Below the pieces are notes generated by a model that saw only the letters and a list, made by a program, of their open reading frames with translations, had not been told where the DNA came from and did not search any database. From NCBI GenBank assembly GCA_001776505.1, contig MFBV01000032.1:1-53558 (forward strand): a stretch of 53,558 bases of DNA. The letters are read 5' to 3'. Below, in pieces: positions 3,152-49,541 of the stretch. Source of the stretch: Candidatus Curtissbacteria bacterium RIFCSPLOWO2_02_FULL_40_11. Its GTDB lineage: Bacteria; Patescibacteriota; Microgenomatia; Curtissbacterales; GWA2-41-24. The position numbers and the translations under genes were made by a program. Positions within the stretch are counted from its first letter, which is position 1, and the number at the start of each line of letters is the position of its first letter.

Positions 3152-3587
3152 CAGCAACAACAACTCCACATTGTTACTTGGAGTAATATTAGGAGCTGCA
3201 CTTACCTATCTTTTTGCAACAAAGAGTGGCCAAAAAACAAGAAAAGAACTTTTTAAAGATGTTGCTAAAATCTTAGAAAACTTAGGTGAGGAACTAGAAG
3301 AGAAAGAAGAATTCAAAGCCGCCTTTGGCGAGCCTCGCCCAAATGGGCGGGAAAAAATAGAAGATAAAAAAGAGGAGATTGAAAAAAAATTAGAAGAAAA
3401 GGTTGAAGCAATCCAAAAAGAGGCAAAAGAAAAATTAGAACAGGTTAAAGAAGAAGCTAGCCAAGAAGTCGAATCAGCAAAAGAAAATATTATTGAGCAG
3501 GTTAGGGAAGTACCCCAGCAAGTTGCCGAAATCCAAAAAAAAGGCCGCCACTTCTTCTTCCGCAAGCGCCATCAGGGCGAATCCTAG
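3138..3587 (+). CDS. YtxH-like general stress protein (GTG start at 3138 after GGAGGG)
   Basis: GVILGAALTYLFATKSGQKTRKELFKD matches the YtxH signature, followed by a K/E-rich coiled coil; RBS GGAGGG at 3127-3132. Confidence 0.65.
   Translation: MSENNSNNNSTLLLGVILGAALTYLFATKSGQKTRKELFKDVAKILENLGEELEEKEEFKAAFGEPRPNGREKIEDKKEEIEKKLEEKVEAIQKEAKEKLEQVKEEASQEVESAKENIIEQVREVPQQVAEIQKKGRHFFFRKRHQGES
3321..3351 (+). repeat. copy of the GC-rich double-hairpin module, in frame in the ytxH-like gene
   Basis: gcctttGGCGAGCCTCGCCCAAATGGGCGGG vs 30147-30174 gccgaaGGCGAACCTCGCCAATGGCGGG. Confidence 0.75.
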
Positions 3588-4268: not shown

Positions 4269-6119
4269 ATGAACTCAACCGTAGTCAGGCAAAAGTTTTT
4301 GAAGTTTTTTGCAAACAAGGGTCATAAAATCATTCCTTCGGCATCTTTAGTTCCCGATGAATCCGTCGAGCTTGCCGGGACACAAAGGGTTTTGTTTACC
4401 ACCGCCGGCATGCACCCGCTTGTTCCTTATCTATTGGGCAAAGCGCATCCGGAAGGTCAAAAGCTTACTAACATCCAGCGATGTTTGAGAACGGACGACA
4501 TCGACGAAGTTGGTGATAGTGTCCATAATACATTCTTTGAAATGCTTGGTAACTGGTCAATCGGTGATCCAAAATCATCAGATGGCATTGGCAAAAACGG
4601 CTATTGGAAAGAAGAAGCAATTTCCTGGTCTTATCAGTTTCTTATCAATGAGTTAAAACTCGATGCCAGACGAATTTATGTTTCAGTCTTTGCGGGAGAC
4701 AGTGATGCACCTTTTGATGAGGAATCTTTCGAAATATGGCGAAAACTGGGTGTAGCTGAAAAAAGAATATTTAAATACGGCAAAGAAGAAAATTGGTGGG
4801 GTCCGGTGGGCGAAACTGGCCCATGTGGGCCGGATACCGAAATGTTCTATGATCTTGACCCCACGTCAACAACGCCTATTGACCCCAGTAGCAACAGCAA
4901 TCGTTTCATAGAAATCTGGAACGATGTTTTTATGCAGTACGAGAAGAAAGTCAGAAGTCAGAAGTCAGAAGTCAGAAGTATATCAGAATCAGGCCCAAAC
5001 GAGTTTGAATTTGTTCCACTCAGGCAAAAAAATGTTGATACCGGAATGGGGCTTGAAAGAATTCTTACGGTTGTTCAAAACACCAAATCTATTTACGAAA
5101 CCGACCTTTTTTTGCCATTAATGAAAAAAATAGAAGATCTATCAACAAGTTACAATCAAAAGTCGGCTCGAATTGTTGCCGACCACATTCGCTCTGCAGT
5201 ATTTTTAATTTTCGACAGGGTCACACCATCGAATGTGGAACGCGGCTATATTCTGCGCCGCCTAATTCGAAGATCAATCCGTCACGCATCAATTTTGGAA
5301 ATCAACGAAGACTTTTTACAAAACTTAACTAAAACCGCAGTTAAAATTTATGAAGGTTTTTACCCCGGGCTTATCGAGCATGAAGACTTAATAATAAAAG
5401 AACTGCAAACTGAGGAGCAGAAATTCAAAAAAGCACTTGCTTCAGGAATTAGGGAATTTGAAAAGATAAAGGGCAACATTTCCGGCAAAGCGGCATTTGA
5501 TCTTTACCAGAATTTCGGCTTCCCGATTGAATTAACTGCCGAACTGGCGACAGAAAAAGGGAAAAGCGTAGATGTAAAAGAATTTGAAGAACTTCTGCGC
5601 GAGCATCAAGAAAAATCAAGAAAAGCAAGTGGTAAAACAAAAGGAGGTTTAGCGGTTCAGGGAGAAACAGCAGCCAAGCTACATACTGCCACTCACTTGC
5701 TTCATCAAGCACTTCGCGATGTCTTGGGCAAACATGTTCACCAAACGGGCTCACATATTACAGAAGAAAGGTTAAGGTTTGACTTTAGCCACGGTGAAAA
5801 AATGACCGCCGGCCAAATAAAAAAAGTAGAAAATATTGTTAACAAAAAAATTAAAGAAAATCTTTCCGTAAATAAGAAAATTATGCCTAAACAAGCTGCA
5901 GATAAATTGAGTGCCATTGGGCTGTTTGATGAAAAGTACGGTGATTTAGTTGATGTTTATTACATAGGTAATTCACCACACATCGAGAATGCTTATTCTA
6001 AAGAATTCTGTGGTGGGCCACATGCCAAGTCTACTGGCACTTTGGCAAGTTTTGTGGTAAAAAAAGAAGAATCAGCCGGCGCAGGAGTAAGAAGAATTTA
6101 TGCTACAATAGGAAAGTAA
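4269..6119 (+). CDS. alaS: alanine--tRNA ligase, compact form (616 aa) apparently lacking the C-Ala/DHHA1 domain
   Basis: FTTAGMHP, IEIWNDVFMQY, DTGMGLER, editing-domain HTATHLLHQALR and CGGPH motifs; ORF stops right after the editing domain. Confidence 0.93.
   Translation: MNSTVVRQKFLKFFANKGHKIIPSASLVPDESVELAGTQRVLFTTAGMHPLVPYLLGKAHPEGQKLTNIQRCLRTDDIDEVGDSVHNTFFEMLGNWSIGDPKSSDGIGKNGYWKEEAISWSYQFLINELKLDARRIYVSVFAGDSDAPFDEESFEIWRKLGVAEKRIFKYGKEENWWGPVGETGPCGPDTEMFYDLDPTSTTPIDPSSNSNRFIEIWNDVFMQYEKKVRSQKSEVRSISESGPNEFEFVPLRQKNVDTGMGLERILTVVQNTKSIYETDLFLPLMKKIEDLSTSYNQKSARIVADHIRSAVFLIFDRVTPSNVERGYILRRLIRRSIRHASILEINEDFLQNLTKTAVKIYEGFYPGLIEHEDLIIKELQTEEQKFKKALASGIREFEKIKGNISGKAAFDLYQNFGFPIELTAELATEKGKSVDVKEFEELLREHQEKSRKASGKTKGGLAVQGETAAKLHTATHLLHQALRDVLGKHVHQTGSHITEERLRFDFSHGEKMTAGQIKKVENIVNKKIKENLSVNKKIMPKQAADKLSAIGLFDEKYGDLVDVYYIGNSPHIENAYSKEFCGGPHAKSTGTLASFVVKKEESAGAGVRRIYATIGK
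4949..4979 (+). repeat. heptanucleotide tandem repeat (AGTCAGA x about 4.4) inside alaS
   Basis: Direct reading of agtcagaagtcagaagtcagaagtcagaagt; encodes VRSQKSEVRSQKSEVRS. Confidence 0.95.
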
Positions 6120-21478: not shown

Positions 21479-21575
21479 AATTTAATTTGAATCTAGCTTT
21501 GCTTGTTCAAATTTTTCCTATAAGGGAAAGAGGAATATTAAGGAGAAAACCGTAGGTTGTCTCCTTAAAGTAGTT
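21479..21575 (+). promoter_or_regulatory. conserved structured leader/operator, copy 1 (upstream of rpsL)
   Basis: About 85 percent identical to 41447-41547; hairpins TTTGAA..TTCAAA, TTCCT..AGGAA, AAGGAGA-AACC-GTA-GGTT-TCTCCTT. Confidence 0.75.
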
Positions 21576-24662: not shown

Positions 24663-26801
24663 ATGAAGGATAAGACTACAAGACTCTACCCATTAGATAG
24701 AATAAGAAATATCGGAATCATTGCCCATATCGACGCCGGAAAAACAACAACTACAGAACGAATTCTTTTTTACACTGGAAAAACTTATAAACTTGGCAAC
24801 ATCGATGAAGGTACAACCATCACCGATTGGATGGCTCAGGAAAAAGAAAGAGGAATTACTATTGTTTCAGCAGCTGTCACAACATTTTGGAAAGCAAAAA
24901 GCGGTCCTTATAAAGATACCGATACCAGGATAAACATTATCGATACGCCGGGGCACGTTGACTTTACAGCCGAAGTCGAACGGTCGCTGCGTGTACTAGA
25001 TGGAGGAGTGACTGTTCTTGATGCAGAAGAAGGAGTTCAATCACAATCGGAAACCGTTTGGCGCCAAGCCGACAAATACAAAGTACCCAGAATTTGCTTC
25101 ATTAACAAGATGGACAAATTAGGAGCAGATTACTTCGCAACTCTCAAATCAATTCGTGATAAATTAAATGCTCCGGCAGTTCCCTACAATTTACCAATTG
25201 GTACCGAAAATGATTTCAAAGGTGTTGTCGACCTACTTTCACAAAAAGCTTATGTCTGGGAAACGGGAGTGGACGGTACTGGGAAAGAATTTAAAGAAGT
25301 AGATATTCCCCATGATATGAAGGCAGATGTTGAAAAATACAGAAATGAACTCATAGAAAAAATCGCGGAAACAGATGATACTCTTATAGAAAAATATCTT
25401 GGCGGTGAAACAATAGAAATTGATGAACTCAAAAAAGCCCTCAGAGGAGCGGTCATCAAGTACAAAATTGTTCCGGTTATGGCAGGTTCTTCTCTAAGAA
25501 ATAAAGGTGTTCAACCACTCCTGGATGCGATTGTTGAATATCTGCCTTCTCCCAAAGATATAGAAAAAGTTGAAGGTGAAAATCCCAAAACCAAAGAAAA
25601 AGAGACTCGAAAATTAGTAACAGAAGAACCGTATTGCGGCTTAGCTTTTAAAATACAAGTCGATCCTCATGTTGGAAAACTTACATTTGTGAGAGTATAT
25701 TCAGGTACTTTAAAATCCGGATCTTCAGTCACAAACACTACTAAGAGCAAAAAAGAAAGAATCGGCAGAATACTTCTGATGCACGCAAATACCAGAGAAG
25801 AAATACAGGAGGCATATGCCGGAGAAATCATTGCAATAGTCGGTCTAAAATCAACAGCCACCGGGGATACCCTCTGCGATGATCAACACCCTTTAATTCT
25901 CGAGTCGATCACATTTCCCGATCCGGTCATATCGCTTGCTATCGAACCAGAAACAAAATCCGATCAAGAGAAATTAGGTTATGCCCTTGGACGTCTGGCC
26001 GAAGAAGATCCGACTTTCAAAATTAAAGGCGATCCGGAAACCGGACAGACAATAATTTCCGGGATGGGCGAACTCCACCTGGAAATTATTGTTGACAGGA
26101 TGAAGCGTGAGTTTTCTGTAAACGCTCAAGTCGGTCGTCCTCAGGTAGCTTATCGGGAAACTATCAAAAAAGAGGCAAATGGCGAAGGTAAGTATATTCG
26201 TCAGTCAGGCGGGCGCGGGCAGTATGGACATTGTTTCTTAAAAGTAGAACCAAAACCAAGAGGAGAAGGTTACGAGTTTGTCTCTACTATTAAAGGTGGG
26301 GCAATTCCTTCAGAATTTATCCCGTCAATTGAAAAAGGTGTCATAGAAAAATTGGATCAGGGAATTCTAGCAGGTTACCCACTGGTCGACATGAAAGTTA
26401 CAGTTTATGATGGAAGCTTTCATGAGGTTGATTCTTCGGACATTGCCTTCAAGATTGCAGGGTCTATGGCTGTCGAAGATGCCGCCAAAAATGCCCAGCT
26501 TACGCTTCTCGAGCCGATTATGAAGTGCGAAGTTACAGTTCCGGAAGACTTTATGGGAGACGTAATTGGAGATCTTTCAAGCAAACGTGCCCAAGTCCAT
26601 GGTACTGATCATCATGGAAACAGTGTAATTGTTAACGCTTTAGTACCCCTTGCCGAAATGTCAGGTTACGTTACAACCTTAAGATCAATGACCCAAGGCC
26701 GCGGATCCGTCTACCTTGAACCCTCCCACTACGAAGAGGTACCAACGAATATAGCTGATAAGATAATCTCCAAAGTTAAAGGAGAAAAAAGCGAATCCTA
26801 A
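24663..26801 (+). CDS. fusA: elongation factor G
   Basis: [24 protein letters not shown] and domain IV/V blocks. Confidence 0.98.
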
Positions 26802-26897
26802 AAATTTGTCTTAGATCCTGAGCGAGTGAAACGAGTCGAAGGACTGATAAGATTGTTGCTAAAAGCAAAGGGGAAAAAGAAGAAAGTTGATTAGGTC

Positions 26898-29399: not shown

Positions 29400-30314
29400 A
29401 TGATTAAAACGATCTTAGGTACTAAATCAAATATGTCGTCAGTATACAACCAGTTCGGTCATCAGGTACCGGTAACTACCGTTATGGCCGAACCAAATAT
29501 TGTATTCGGTATACGAGATAAAAAAATTATACTTGGGTTAGGTAAAAAGAAAATATCTAAGAAAACAGAAAACACCTATCTAAAAATAGCAGGATTCCCA
29601 CCAAGATTTATTAAAGAAGTAACACTAAAAAACGAAACATCAAAAGAACAAAAAACCTCAGAAATTCCTCAAGAAAATTCCCAACAAAACCAAGAAGTTG
29701 CCAAAAAAATTAATTTAGGAGACAAAATAACAGTCTCCATTTTTGAACCTGGCGACGAAGTAAAGGTGACGGGAACTACCAAAGGTAAGGGTTTTACTGG
29801 AGTCGTCAAAAGGTGGGGTTTTGCTGGAGGTCCAAAAACTCACGGCCAATCCGACCGCCATAGAGCGCCTGGATCTATTGGAATGGGAACCACGCCGGGG
29901 CGTGTTTTTAAGGGAAAGAAAATGGCAGGGCATCTGGGTAACTCTAAACTTACTGTTACTGGTCTTGAGGTAATTGAAGTTAACGAAGATAAAAATATTA
30001 TTTTAATTAAGGGTGCAATTCCAGGCCCAAAGGATGGTTTTTTAATAATTGAAAAAACTGGAAAAGTAAAAAGTTATACTCTTCCACCACCGAGCGAAGA
30101 AAAACAGACAGCCGCCGAAGGCCTGCTACACCCGCTTCGACACGTCGCCGAAGGCGAACCTCGCCAATGGCGGGTCGAAGACGAGGCGAGCGGCGAGGCG
30201 AGCGAACCTCGACCCGAAAGTTGGGAAAAAGAAGCGAAAGCTGATGAGAAAGAAGAAACAAAAGGGACAAAAGAGTTGAAGGAAAAGGAGGAAAATGAAG
30301 ATGCCAAGAGTTAA
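29400..30314 (+). CDS. rplC: 50S ribosomal protein L3 with internal insertion and about 85-aa C-terminal extension (ATG 29400; alternative TTG 29379 after AAGGAG)
   Basis: MIKTILGTKSNMS, GTTKGKGFTGVVKRWGFAGGPKTHGQSDRHRAPGSIG. Confidence 0.95.
   Translation: MIKTILGTKSNMSSVYNQFGHQVPVTTVMAEPNIVFGIRDKKIILGLGKKKISKKTENTYLKIAGFPPRFIKEVTLKNETSKEQKTSEIPQENSQQNQEVAKKINLGDKITVSIFEPGDEVKVTGTTKGKGFTGVVKRWGFAGGPKTHGQSDRHRAPGSIGMGTTPGRVFKGKKMAGHLGNSKLTVTGLEVIEVNEDKNIILIKGAIPGPKDGFLIIEKTGKVKSYTLPPPSEEKQTAAEGLLHPLRHVAEGEPRQWRVEDEASGEASEPRPESWEKEAKADEKEETKGTKELKEKEENEDAKS
30100..30225 (+). repeat. GC-rich hairpin-dense segment embedded in frame in the rplC 3' extension
   Basis: Locally GC-rich (gccgccgaaggcc...cgaacctcgacccg); contains the CGCC-GAA-GGCG / CGCC-AAT-GGCG module also seen at 3321-3351, and a CGGGTCGA...TCGACCCG stem. 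Confidence 0.8.
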
Positions 30315-31002: not shown

Positions 31003-31439
31003 ACAGTGCGAAATTAATAAAAAGAGCAATTTTATCCGAGAAGTCGTACGGTCTTATGGACAAAGGTATTTATACTATTCTAGTGGCAAAGGATGCAAAT
31101 AAAAACCAAATAAAAAAAGCAGTAGAGAACCAATTTCAAGTAAATGTGAAAGGTGTAAATGTTCTAATAAAAAGTGCGAAGACTAAGAGGATTACTGGAA
31201 CTAGAAAGACTGCAACCATTGGAGCCGGTAAAAAGGCCGTTATAACTCTAGAGAAGGGTCAAAGCATTGCACTTTTCAGTACAAAGAGTGAAAAGCCCGC
31301 TTCGCAAGCGAAGCGAGGCGAGTCTAAAACCAAAAAAACAGAATTAAAAGAAAAAAGCAAAGAAATAAAAAAAGAGGACAAAGGCAAAGGAATACTTGGA
31401 AAATTTAGGATCCAAAAGAGTAAAAAGGAAAGAGAGTAA
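30999..31439 (+). CDS. rplW: 50S ribosomal protein L23 with K-rich C-terminal extension
   Basis: LIKRAILSEKS, VAKDANKNQIKKAVE; extension begins near residue 95. Confidence 0.95.
   Translation: MNSAKLIKRAILSEKSYGLMDKGIYTILVAKDANKNQIKKAVENQFQVNVKGVNVLIKSAKTKRITGTRKTATIGAGKKAVITLEKGQSIALFSTKSEKPASQAKRGESKTKKTELKEKSKEIKKEDKGKGILGKFRIQKSKKERE
31298..31315 (+). repeat. perfect GC-rich palindrome CGCTTCGC-AA-GCGAAGCG inside the rplW extension
   Basis: Direct reading; followed by aggcgag, the same motif type as 32285-32299 and 30181-30205. Confidence 0.85.
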
Positions 31440-32267: not shown

Positions 32268-32329
32268 TAGTTCAAAATATCAAGGAGCGAAGCGAGGCTG
32301 ATTTAGTTAAAGAAAGAAAGAGAAAATAA

Positions 32330-41446: not shown

Positions 41447-41547
41447 AATTTAATTTGAATCTGGCTCGGCCAGTTCAAATTATTCCTACAAGGGAAAGAG
41501 GAATATTAAGGAGAAAACCTCAAGGCTTGTCTCCTTAAAGTAAATTT
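41447..41547 (+). promoter_or_regulatory. conserved structured leader/operator, copy 2 (upstream of rpsM)
   Basis: See 21479-21575; hairpin TTTGAAtCTGGC-tcg-GCCAGTTCAAA; AAGGAGA...TCTCCTT hairpin ends 11 nt before the ATG. Confidence 0.75.
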
Positions 41548-48035: not shown

Positions 48036-49541
48036 ATGGGAATATTTGATTCTAAACCTTCTCAAAATCCGACGAGCAGAGCAATCCATAAACAACCTAA
48101 GAAAATAGTGGTTTCTGTAGGAAATGACAAAGGTTATCCGGCTTCTCCTGCAGTGAAAGATGCTCGCGAGATAATTCAAGATGCTCGTGATGAAGCGTTT
48201 CGTATAAAAAAAGCTGCTGAAGAAGAAACTAGGAAAATTCGTCAAGAAATATTAGATTTGGAAAATAGAGTTGCTCAGAAAGAAACATCGCTAGAGTCTA
48301 AGCTTTCACAAATTACTAAGCTTGAAAGACAAGTCGAATCTGGCCGTAAAACACTAGAGAAAAGAGAGCAGGAAATCACCAAAACTAGAAGTGAGTTGGT
48401 CGATAAATTATCTAAAGTTTCATCTTTAACTCGTGAAGAAGCCAGAAAATTAATACTATCTAACTTGGAAGAAGAATTAAAAGGTGAAGTCGCAAAGCGT
48501 ATTAAAGAAGCAGAAGAAAAAATAAAAGCTGAAGCAAGTGAAAAAGCGAAAGAAATATTAGTTAATAGTATGATGGCAGGTAGTACGGATTGGGCAGCTG
48601 AGTATACAGTTTCCACTGTAAAACTCGAGTCAGATGAAATAAAAGGTCGAATCATTGGTAAAGAGGGTCGCAACATTAGAGCGTTTGAACTTGCCACCGG
48701 GGTCGATGTTGAACTCGAAAGTGACGTTGCAGGGGAAGTACGACTTTCATCTTTTGATCCTATAAGACGAGAGATTGCCAGAATGGCACTGGAGTGGCTA
48801 GTAAAAGATGCCAGAATTCAACCTTCAAGGATAGAACAACTCGTCGAAAAGGCAAGATCTCAAGTTGGAAAAGACATGTCAGATGCCGGCAGGAAAGCGG
48901 CAAGTGAAGTTGGTTTATATAACATTTCCCAGCAAGCTTTAGATACCTTAGGACGCCTTAAATTTCGATATTCTTATGGACAAAATCAATTGATAGCTTC
49001 AATTGAAACCGCTAGAATTGCTAAAAAAATTGCGGAGGAAATAGGTGCTGATTATCAAGTAACTACTATGGGAGGTCTTTACCATGATATCGGTAAAACC
49101 GAAATGGAAAAGGAAGGAACCCACGTTCAGCTAGGAGTCGAACTTGCCAAGAAATGGAATTTCCCTCAAGAAGTTATTGATTGCATTGCCCAGCACCATG
49201 AGGATGAACCCTTTTCGCGGGTAGAATCAATAATTGTTCATATAGCAGATAGCGTTTCCGGCGCTCGCCCCGGGGCTCGCCATGAAGCTGTTGAAGATTA
49301 CATTAGAAGACTTACCGATATCGAAAAAGTTGCTACATCTTTCAAAGGTGTTGATAAAGCCTACGCGATTCAGGCTGGACGCGAGATCAGAGTTATTGTT
49401 GAACCTCAAACAGTTGATGATGAAGCAACCGTCAAACTTTCTCACGAGATAAAACAAAAACTAGAAGATGAATTAACTTACCCAGGGCAGATTACTGTTA
49501 CAGTAATTCGTGAATTTAGAGCAGTCGATATTGCCAAATAA
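48036..49541 (+). CDS. rny: ribonuclease Y (no obvious N-terminal TM helix)
   Basis: Coiled coil, KH motif GRIIGKEGRNIRAFE, HD domain LYHDIGK ... IAQHHED. Confidence 0.93.
   Translation: MGIFDSKPSQNPTSRAIHKQPKKIVVSVGNDKGYPASPAVKDAREIIQDARDEAFRIKKAAEEETRKIRQEILDLENRVAQKETSLESKLSQITKLERQVESGRKTLEKREQEITKTRSELVDKLSKVSSLTREEARKLILSNLEEELKGEVAKRIKEAEEKIKAEASEKAKEILVNSMMAGSTDWAAEYTVSTVKLESDEIKGRIIGKEGRNIRAFELATGVDVELESDVAGEVRLSSFDPIRREIARMALEWLVKDARIQPSRIEQLVEKARSQVGKDMSDAGRKAASEVGLYNISQQALDTLGRLKFRYSYGQNQLIASIETARIAKKIAEEIGADYQVTTMGGLYHDIGKTEMEKEGTHVQLGVELAKKWNFPQEVIDCIAQHHEDEPFSRVESIIVHIADSVSGARPGARHEAVEDYIRRLTDIEKVATSFKGVDKAYAIQAGREIRVIVEPQTVDDEATVKLSHEIKQKLEDELTYPGQITVTVIREFRAVDIAK

Follow-up and report, generated by a model that had tools for sequence, protein, structure and literature searches.

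Short GC-rich double-hairpin inserts, probably mobile, in ribosomal-protein and other core genes of the candidate phyla radiation

A composite insert in the tail of ribosomal protein L3

The window analyzed here is the whole 53,558-nt contig MFBV01000032.1 of Candidatus Curtissbacteria bacterium RIFCSPLOWO2_02_FULL_40_11 (assembly GCA_001776505.1), a member of the candidate phyla radiation (CPR). It has a GC content of 38% and holds the str, S10, and spc ribosomal-protein operons. Its longest GC-rich island (30104-30227) lies in the C-terminal tail of rplC (29400-30314), the gene of ribosomal protein L3, where it is read in frame as ..SEEKQT-AAEGLLHPLRHVAEGEPRQWRVEDEASGEASEPRPESW-EKEAK... An earlier note, made from the sequence alone, had drawn attention to a GC-rich hairpin block of about 125 nt at this place; it measures 124 nt at 66% GC, and 30095-30235 folds at -56 kcal/mol (z = -3.3 versus shuffles). 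An identical L3 protein is encoded on contigs of independent ENA and JGI assemblies, so the block is not an assembly artifact.

The same note had seen a sub-module of this block recur inside a ytxH-like gene, whose product matches Pfam YtxH. The pattern CGCCnnnGGCGArCCTCGCCn(2-6)GGCGG indeed occurs exactly twice in the window (3320-3350 and 30146-30173) and not once in 100 dinucleotide-preserving shuffles, and both copies are read in frame as described, as GEPRQWR in rplC and as GEPRPNGR in the ytxH-like gene. The region 3300-3365 folds at -21 kcal/mol (z = -3.0 versus shuffles), with two hairpins predicted for 3318-3350 (-21 kcal/mol). The portrayal of both copies as two adjacent mini-hairpins thus fits the ytxH copy, as it does nearly all 64 metagenome relatives described below, but not the short rplC copy taken alone, for which ViennaRNA prefers a nested alternative made from the same CGCC/GGCG blocks. 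The features on which the argument rests are the following; R1 is the covariance model of the element.

30111-30224, plus strand: composite insert of 114 nt (38 codons), in frame in the rplC C-terminal tail; 66% GC; lacking in the closest L3 orthologs
30111-30122, plus strand: outer element, 5' half, decayed canonical copy, GCCGCCGAAGGC; joined to 30204-30224 it gives a 33-nt unit of canonical layout
30123-30143, plus strand: middle hairpin module, left arm, CTGCTACACCCGCTTCGACAC; pairs with 30174-30203 (CTTCGAC/GTCGAAG) in the predicted fold
30144-30173, plus strand: inner element, minimal double hairpin of 30 nt within the middle module's loop, GTCGCCGAAGGCGAACCTCGCCAATGGCGG; model R1, 26.3 bits, E = 7e-5
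30174-30203, plus strand: middle hairpin module, right arm, GTCGAAGACGAGGCGAGCGGCGAGGCGAGC; 28/30 identical to locus L051, 851-880
30204-30224, plus strand: outer element, 3' half, decayed canonical copy, GAACCTCGACCCGAAAGTTGG; hairpin CUCGAC/GUUGGG
30225-30227, plus strand: GAA, host codon at the insertion point; a native GAA stands directly 3' of the insert in three filled-versus-empty comparisons
3318-3350, plus strand: canonical 33-nt double hairpin in the ytxH-like gene, followed by GAA at 3351-3353; model R1, 60.2 bits, E = 3e-13

We compared the C-terminal tails of 120 L3 homologs, among which the named relatives are Candidatus Curtissbacteria (Microgenomates, CPR); an L3 protein search of genome contigs returned three relatives (L004-L006) and 16 Actinomycetota loci, which were set aside. 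Proteins 72-76% identical to the window L3 (P0004, P0006/L026, P0007-13) read SEEKQ-A-EKEA with nothing between, versus SEEKQ-T[38 aa]EKEA in the window. The DNA of L026 at this empty site is CAA GCA GAA AAG, and the 114-nt insert of the window stands directly 5' of the native GAA. In L023, a more distant relative, 54 nt are inserted one step farther upstream, between SE and EKQ, where L026 is empty; inserts of 39-60 nt lie 3' of EKQ in L024 and L004. Related blocks occur in many Curtissbacteria-like L3 proteins (AAQDGEPRSSDER, AAEGEPRQEGRE, GPLRSEASEPRPEGR), their near relatives being uninterrupted (NEEKQAEKEEKAE).

Read against the family, the rplC block has three nested layers. The outer unit shows the layout GCCGCC-nnn-GGC^GAr-CCTCGcCC-nnnn-GgGcGG (caret, point of insertion here and below), gives a weak covariance-model match at 30197-30227, and keeps its 3' hairpin by means of one double change and of G:U pairs. 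This unit was split at GGC^GAA by a 51-nt hairpin module, the two arms of which are 30123-30143 and 30174-30203. The near-identical match to the right arm of this module in L051 lies in the S16 C-terminal tail on another contig (E = 6.6e-7), where CCCGCTTCGACA of the left arm is found again; there the hairpin has a loop of only AA and is followed by a canonical 3' hairpin, making a related composite in the S16 tail of another organism. The 30-nt minimal element, in turn, split the loop of the middle module.

Two variants of the window L3 are broken at the block. P0003 is frameshifted within the inner element (..AEGEPRQLAGRRRGERRGG..), and P0017 ends right at SEEKQTAA, the start of the insert; the element may be behind sequencing, assembly, or gene-calling breaks here, or these may be real indel polymorphisms. 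L3 tails also hold a second recurrent block, HPxDDxPLDEN, just 3' of PPP/PEP and variably present (P0035, P0053, P0058, P0075, P0084, P0099, and L004). In L004 (about 3330-3375) it is encoded by CATCCAAAGGTTGATCAGCCTCTGGATGAA, a hairpin (CATCC..GGATG), and it may be another family of in-frame palindromic inserts.

A family of double hairpins with one architecture

A scan of metagenome contigs with the exact pattern GCGARCYTCGCYCN{3,7}GRGCGRGAA gave at least 120 loci. Among the matches listed, 73 low-GC contigs (25-53% GC) hold at least 64 distinct elements, the basis of the family statistics; the 47 high-GC matches were set aside as a chance class, mostly one coding motif (ASLARPGGNVTG-type peptide). 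The family consensus runs GCCGCC-(hairpin A top)-GGCGAGCCTCGCCC-(loop or hairpin B top)-GGGCGG, then GAA, with a canonical length of 33-48 nt. All 64 listed copies begin with GCCGCC (or GTCGCC) and end with GGCGG, and nearly all are folded by ViennaRNA into two adjacent hairpins, often with UUCG- or GNRA-like loops. The stem bases, CGCC/GGCG and CUCGCCC/GGGCGGG, are constant across copies. The stem tops are not: 59 distinct ones occur in 64 copies, still self-complementary (TCGTC..GACGA, CCCAAT..ATTGG, CCTGC..GCAGG, CTCAAC..GTTGAG). In the variable part of hairpin A, at least three contiguous end-pairs are found in 25/64 copies versus 2.9% of shuffles (p about 5e-22), and at one conserved pair both bases have changed, from CG to UA, in 6 sequences.

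Because MAFFT, when aligning 60 elements, had put the 5' box in the wrong place, model R1 was built from eleven 36-nt copies, their structure being written by hand. When pairs are counted after fitting to the model, there is little covariation since the core hardly varies, the useful covariation being that of the unaligned stem tops. The covariance model of the minimal form gave 78 matches in the carrier loci; 7 of them, each the second or third in its contig (L054, L055, L056, L059, L064, and L135), had not been picked out by the pattern. Two copies stand back to back in L056 (3762-3868) and a fused pair in L055 (1836-1889); therefore, clusters as well as nests occur. Further copies, on which the idea of an insertion element had been made to depend, thus exist at three levels: elsewhere in the window, as the seven extra copies in carrier contigs, and as at least 64 distinct elements in metagenomes. 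The copy number per genome, about one per 20-70 kb, is an extrapolation only.

The named relatives of the carriers are Curtissbacteria in the L3 search and Nealsonbacteria, Azambacteria, and Paceibacterota in the IF-2 search; on this taxonomy, which comes from two host genes only, the family spans Microgenomates and Parcubacteria. Among CPR bacteria, Saccharibacteria are known for natural competence (PMC10187176). No match to the pattern was found in 2.9 million viral contigs. In Rfam, only tRNA reached the gathering threshold in the window, and nothing lay over the elements at E <= 1 in six carrier loci. A full-text literature search found no description of such elements in CPR.

Could GC-rich Ala/Gly/Arg/Pro codons in disordered tails simply look alike, with the hairpins arising from low complexity? 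Some GC-rich sequence does behave in this way, since three other GC islands of the window (AlaRS, L17, RNase Y) are native conserved coding sequence and the high-GC metagenome matches are mostly one conserved peptide motif. The absence of the two-copy pattern from every shuffle, the model E-values of 3e-13 and 7e-5 in the window, and the 64 distinct copies with one architecture whatever the host gene nevertheless refute chance, to which we give practically no credit.

Empty sites, different sites, and clean junctions

The earlier note took these blocks for insertions rather than ancestral sequence, a view upheld by orthologs in sister genomes that lack the insert or carry one at another site for L3, YtxH, L23, GyrA, UvrA, AddA, IF-2, and MiaB. 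The AAFGEPRPNGR block of the ytxH-like gene is missing in the nearest YtxH homolog (P0121); a distant homolog (P0123) has AAEGEPRPEGR at a nearby position, and its sister (P0124) does not. In ortholog pairs of GyrA (L029/L108), UvrA (L049/L137), and AddA (L136/L080), all 63-69% identical, the inserts occupy different sites, and each is lacking in the partner. CysRS carries inserts of two different element subfamilies at one point, just before EPSW. IF-2 is empty in 88 homologs (LLDxIR-KTNVAEH-EAGGITQ), among them proteins 73-78% identical to the filled query L097, and filled in 7, just before EAGGITQ; one filled allele (P0137) is itself nested, with a second 30-nt element at GGC^GAG of the first.

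The junctions are precise. Empty IF-2 (L147) reads GAA AAA^GAA GCT GGA GGC and filled IF-2 (L097) GAA AAA^42 nt^GAA GCG GGA GGC, with no duplicated bases, and no target duplication is seen in two L3 comparisons either (ACA^..^GAA and GAA^..^GAA). All seven copies found without the GAA requirement have GA directly 3'. From these junctions and these seven copies, the usual landing point lies directly 5' of a GAR (Glu) codon. The site is preferred but not obligatory, because a Curtissbacteria L3 subgroup reads ..ER^AEKEE and the inner copy of the window ..GGCGG^GTC. The 5' flank shows mild T enrichment only; the fixed flank (GA/GAR) is 3' on the sense strand.

A different GC-rich sequence occupies the same IF-2 site in P0219 (L149, about 580-650) and P0220, namely, a single long palindrome of about 50 nt (-32 kcal/mol; ..GCCCGCCTCGACTCGCTCGC..GAGAGCGAGGCGGGC..) that is read as ESSPPRLARFRSVVES. 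It suggests that there is a wider superfamily, or else that the IF-2 site is strongly permissive or targeted.

Host genes, reading frame, and translation

Roughly four-fifths of the copies lie inside open reading frames of >100 codons, in more than 25 host families (Pfam). The hosts include GyrA (three loci), GyrB, UvrA (three loci), an AddA-like helicase-nuclease, Mfd, FtsK, RuvB, and PolX, as well as EF-G, IF-2 (three loci), a release factor, and YchF. Aminoacyl-tRNA synthetases include a class I enzyme of the Ile/Leu/Met/Val type, CysRS (two loci), the PheRS beta chain, and a class II enzyme; PNPase, PPDK, acetyl-CoA synthetase, and PGK are further hosts. A DNA polymerase III delta-type subunit, a VirD4-like ATPase, TsaD, and S16 complete the list. 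The GyrA of L029 (2132-6181) carries an intein with a LAGLIDADG endonuclease domain besides its double-hairpin insert, and thus two kinds of in-frame parasite in one gene.

Element length is a multiple of three in 55/64 copies (86%; p = 4e-18), the exceptions being mostly at the ends of reading frames or in spacers. A single frame, AA..GR^E, is used by 56 of the 73 copies (77%) versus 35% expected from GAR availability (p = 5e-13). Since only 35% of GAR trinucleotides are in frame (sense strand, genes of this window), target availability alone does not explain the frame bias. The middle of the 56 in-frame copies reads GEPRP in 31 and ASLAP in 25, the latter because the length of hairpin A differs modulo 3. 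In-frame stop codons occur in 3/55 copies versus 21/55 in frame +2. Sense orientation accounts for 61/73 copies; 12 are reverse, some of them within PolX and TsaD, where they read SRPxGRGSP..AA, and there are intergenic copies too. Length, frame, and stop numbers therefore suggest that the inserts are translated and that selection keeps the frames yielding a small hydrophilic loop of Ala, Glu, Arg, Pro, and Gly.

Alternatively, the inserts might not be translated at all, by ribosome bypass, as in the 'byp' GC clusters of Magnusiomyces mitochondria, or by excision from the mRNA. Very stable hairpins do sit in essential genes, including IF-2 between the P-loop helix and the GGITQ motif, and GC clusters in the mitochondria of one yeast are bypassed in this manner (PMC8811140). 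Yet 86% multiple-of-three lengths and the depletion of in-frame stops would be needless if the inserts were skipped, and we consider non-translation very unlikely.

Equally little, or slightly less, can be said for a peptide-level module, in which AA-x-GEPRP-x-GRE would be a useful linear motif or flexible loop repeatedly selected in proteins. The strong one-frame bias at both ends and the hydrophilic peptide, rich in Ala, Glu, Arg, Pro, and Gly, would suit it. The same nucleotides, however, serve as GEPRP or as ASLAP, which largely refutes it; in AT-rich genomes the codons are held to G/C, some copies are intergenic or reversed, and the hairpin tops vary the amino acids freely while base pairing is kept.

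Constraint on nucleotides and what it might mean

An almost unchanged 45-nt element is found in three IF-2 genes with protein identities of only 43-49%; the differences all lie in the loops. Codons for the same amino acid are identical in 35/40 cases within the element versus 35/71 in the highly conserved flanks (Fisher p = 7e-5). Together with the two alternative readings and the reverse and intergenic copies, these codons place the constraint on the nucleotides, not on the peptide. Given that closer relatives are polymorphic for the insert, three explanations remain for the IF-2 codon identity: repeated recent insertion at a preferred site, homogenization between copies, or selection on structure.

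On a rival reading of the family, a host-beneficial RNA or single-stranded DNA structure in coding regions (an mRNA stabilizer, an RNase or processing site, or a translation-pausing signal) would be kept by host selection and would not spread selfishly. In IF-2, the conservation of stem nucleotides, third codon positions included, far exceeds that of synonymous sites in the flanks; many loops are UUCG- or GNRA-like, sense orientation prevails (61/73), and a conserved U:G pair is possible on the sense strand only. A host function sits badly, however, with the arbitrary positions in unrelated genes, the presence or absence among relatives 63-78% identical, the nesting of elements in one another, the persistence of decayed copies such as the rplC outer element, the lack of an Rfam family match, and the reverse copies tolerated in PolX and TsaD. 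We regard it as unlikely, although it is the least unlikely of the rivals.

Probable palindromic insertion elements of non-coding origin

What we observe is a repeat family of defined structure that resides in frame in unrelated genes, is polymorphic or differently placed among orthologs, nests within itself, and has clean junctions. The rplC block is, with good confidence, a pile-up of short GC-rich palindromic insertion elements of non-coding origin, mobile now or recently in CPR (Patescibacteria). New copies would land without target duplication, mostly just 5' of a GAR codon, and GGC^GAG within an existing element would serve as a further landing point, giving nested composites as in rplC. 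Intragenic copies would persist where their length is a multiple of three and their frame, mostly one, yields a hydrophilic loop (AA..GEPRP..GR-E or AA..ASLAP..GR-E), which is presumably tolerated in disordered Lys/Glu-rich tails (L3, L23, S16, YtxH) and in variable stretches of enzymes. The inserts would then be selfish rather than useful, surviving where the added loop is harmless. The hairpins might be the feature recognized for mobilization, and spread could rely on a trans-acting enzyme working on hairpins in single-stranded DNA (IS200/IS605- or RAYT-like) or on templated copying between copies.

Several points weigh against mobile, selfish elements or counsel restraint. No transposase, Y1/HUH type included, or other mobility gene has been linked to the element, the sample being one of contigs and not of complete genomes. 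The scan pattern demanded the conserved core and the 3' GAA, so the sample is biased to canonical copies, only 7 having been found without that demand. G:T and A:C mismatches in the variable stems show no asymmetry and hence give no sign of the strand or of an RNA or DNA form. The IF-2 synonymous-site conservation could mean a structure useful to the host, and the recurrent sites in IF-2 and CysRS could reflect protein tolerance rather than target choice. Translation of the inserts, finally, is deduced rather than observed.

The most far-reaching version of mobile palindromic insertion is one that we put forward tentatively, as possible but doubtful in its entirety. It would hold that a lineage-wide, still-active family of ~40-nt double hairpins inhabits essential CPR genes and inserts strand-specifically and without duplication 5' of GAR by a single-stranded hairpin intermediate and an enzyme, the hairpins being kept by selection or gene conversion, and so generates new surface loops and tails, ribosomal-protein extensions among them.

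Other inserts and GC-rich pieces in the window

Four further pieces had been listed with the two copies above.

31299-31325, plus strand: 27-nt in-frame hairpin insert in the rplW tail (ASQAKRGES); absent in L23 of L026 and L023
51544-51582, plus strand: GC-rich hairpin insert of 39 nt, in frame in miaB, ACPSKSSIAGRSG; different sequence family; absent in 11/11 aligned MiaB homologs
32285-32299, plus strand: intergenic candidate, GAGCGAAGCGAGGCT; 13 nt in common with the rplW insert, E = 0.1
26816-26845, plus strand: GC-rich candidate flanked by the stop codon of fusA and by a duplicate of the fusA 3' end; 25/28 identical to L144, 7211-7238, E = 0.003

The rplW piece proved to be an in-frame insert, the window reading TKSEKP[ASQAKRGES]KTKK versus TKAEKP^KTKK in both relatives. 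It contains GCTTCGC-AA-GCGAAGC (fold, -18 kcal/mol) and has CCCGCTTCGC and GCGAGGCGAG in common with the middle module of rplC; CCCGCTTCG, likewise common to the two, is read in different frames in the two genes. The miaB piece is also an in-frame hairpin insert (-22.8 kcal/mol), lacking even in homologs 59-60% identical, but its sequence differs. Model R1 does not match it, and the metagenome and genome loci compared offered no significant relative, only short or marginal matches. The two intergenic pieces share short motifs and nothing beyond that: 26816-26845 folds weakly (-9.5 kcal/mol) and may be another hairpin family, and AGCGAGGCTGAT, part of 32285-32299, is also conserved in L023 and L004, where it lies in the same spacer between rplB and rpsS. 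The suggestion that all six sites form one sequence family is therefore not supported, given the different miaB sequence and the two unproven intergenic pieces. Any tie between the canonical element and the miaB insert or the 'module B' hairpins rests on short common motifs and like behavior, not on alignment.

Three other GC islands were rejected as copies, each being a native conserved motif: AlaRS 4791-4842 (NWWGPVGETGPCGPD), L17 44318-44357 (RRGDAAQMAKLEF), and RNase Y 49239-49299 (IADSVSGARPGARHEAVEDYIRRL).

The window also contains several direct repeats. The fusA 3' end (26755-26789) is duplicated 89 nt downstream (26844-26878), and the post-stop copy, 74% identical, would encode TDKIVAKSKGEKEES up to a stop codon. 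A 73-nt direct repeat (90% identical) lies at 21479-21551 and 41447-41519, just upstream of rpsL (21576) and rpsM (41548); it has an internal hairpin (TTGAATCT..GTTCAA), ends with AAGGAG, has no Rfam match at the gathering threshold, and looks like a shared promoter or leader of two ribosomal-protein operons. Two more pairs, 11498-11555/12520-12577 and 9708-9791/10558-10642, are 82-90% identical and ~850-1020 nt apart, the latter pair appearing to be the 3' parts of two paralogous neighboring genes.

Significance and relation to known systems

A survey of CPR ribosomal proteins noted CPR-specific extra regions and left them uncharacterized (PMC9297842). The earlier note had proposed that inserted DNA accounts for at least part of the ribosomal-protein extensions, and so it does for 38 residues of the L3 C-terminal tail and 9 of the L23 tail; the Lys/Glu-rich remainder of these tails is also present in relatives without inserts. 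This gives a concrete DNA-level origin to part of the CPR-specific extensions and insertions in ribosomal proteins and core enzymes. The inserts inflate apparent divergence in the marker alignments of CPR phylogeny (L3, IF-2, GyrA/B, EF-G, and aminoacyl-tRNA synthetases), and they are usable as polymorphic markers for strain tracking. If a dedicated enzyme moves the elements, they would represent a compact site-specific DNA insertion system.

Like ERIC and Correia, which are MITEs (transposable elements of the miniature inverted-repeat kind), the element is short, non-autonomous, multi-copy, and sometimes intragenic with in-frame fusions (PMC10969869). The defining features of MITEs, however, are inverted repeats at the termini, duplication of the target site, and a parent insertion sequence, whereas the inverted termini here are only 5-6 nt (CCGCC/GGCGG), and membership is rejected because the IF-2 and L3 junctions show no target duplication. 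The repetitive extragenic palindromic (REP)/RAYT and IS200/IS605 systems, too, have small imperfect hairpins rich in G+C, whose stem bases are conserved and whose variation is compensated. REP elements are imperfect palindromes of 20-40 nt. Their published description makes them extragenic, with a GTAG or CGTC tag (PMC3733652). Our element starts with 5' GCCGCC, has no such tag, is intragenic in most copies, and has its fixed flank (GAR) 3', so that membership is rejected here too.

The IS200/IS605 family inserts without target duplication, next to a short fixed flank, and with one-strand preference. The element described here resembles such 'peel-and-paste' elements, and those of the RAYT type, in its two direct hairpins with similar stems, the lack of long terminal inverted repeats and of target duplication, the short fixed flank, and the strand bias. 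Elements of the IS200/IS605 type have subterminal hairpins at both ends on one strand and insert 3' of a specific tetra- or pentanucleotide at the left end, a place that the fixed GA/GAR would take only with the antisense strand as the active one. By this analogy, an HUH-type mechanism is conceivable but rather improbable.

Closer in function are the GC clusters known from the mitochondrial DNA of yeasts. These GC-rich palindromes lie in a genome rich in AT, form polymorphic in-frame inserts in the ribosomal-protein gene var1, and merge and shuffle into composites (PMC8811140). Palindromes of this kind, an AT-rich genome, polymorphic in-frame inserts in a ribosomal-protein gene, and composites are all found here as well. 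GC clusters are, in contrast, organellar and mostly intergenic, with AG/TAG terminal repeats read as target duplications, of which none are seen here; in Magnusiomyces the ribosome skips the inserts, whereas the length and stop numbers in our case speak for translation, and the present context is a bacterial ribosomal-protein operon.

The functionally closest known system is that of the Rickettsia palindromic elements (RPE). RPE, found in a genome that is reduced and AT-rich, likewise are palindromic, reside in frame in many unrelated housekeeping genes, to which they add a conserved peptide, and have intergenic copies too (PMC10969869). They are set apart by description, being about 100-150 bp long, confined to an alphaproteobacterial genus, and unrelated in sequence; the element described here is a strongly GC-rich double hairpin of 33-48 nt with a conserved core, often nested, placed 5' of GAR, and hosted by CPR. 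The resemblance to RPE on which the earlier note had remarked therefore holds for the way of working, in frame in unrelated genes, but does not amount to membership, as size, sequence, and lineage differ. A new RPE-like family of mobile palindromic elements is the best reading of these data, and it would be the second bacterial instance of the RPE phenomenon, independent of the first and set in a vast uncultured radiation, with a unit that is much smaller and better defined.

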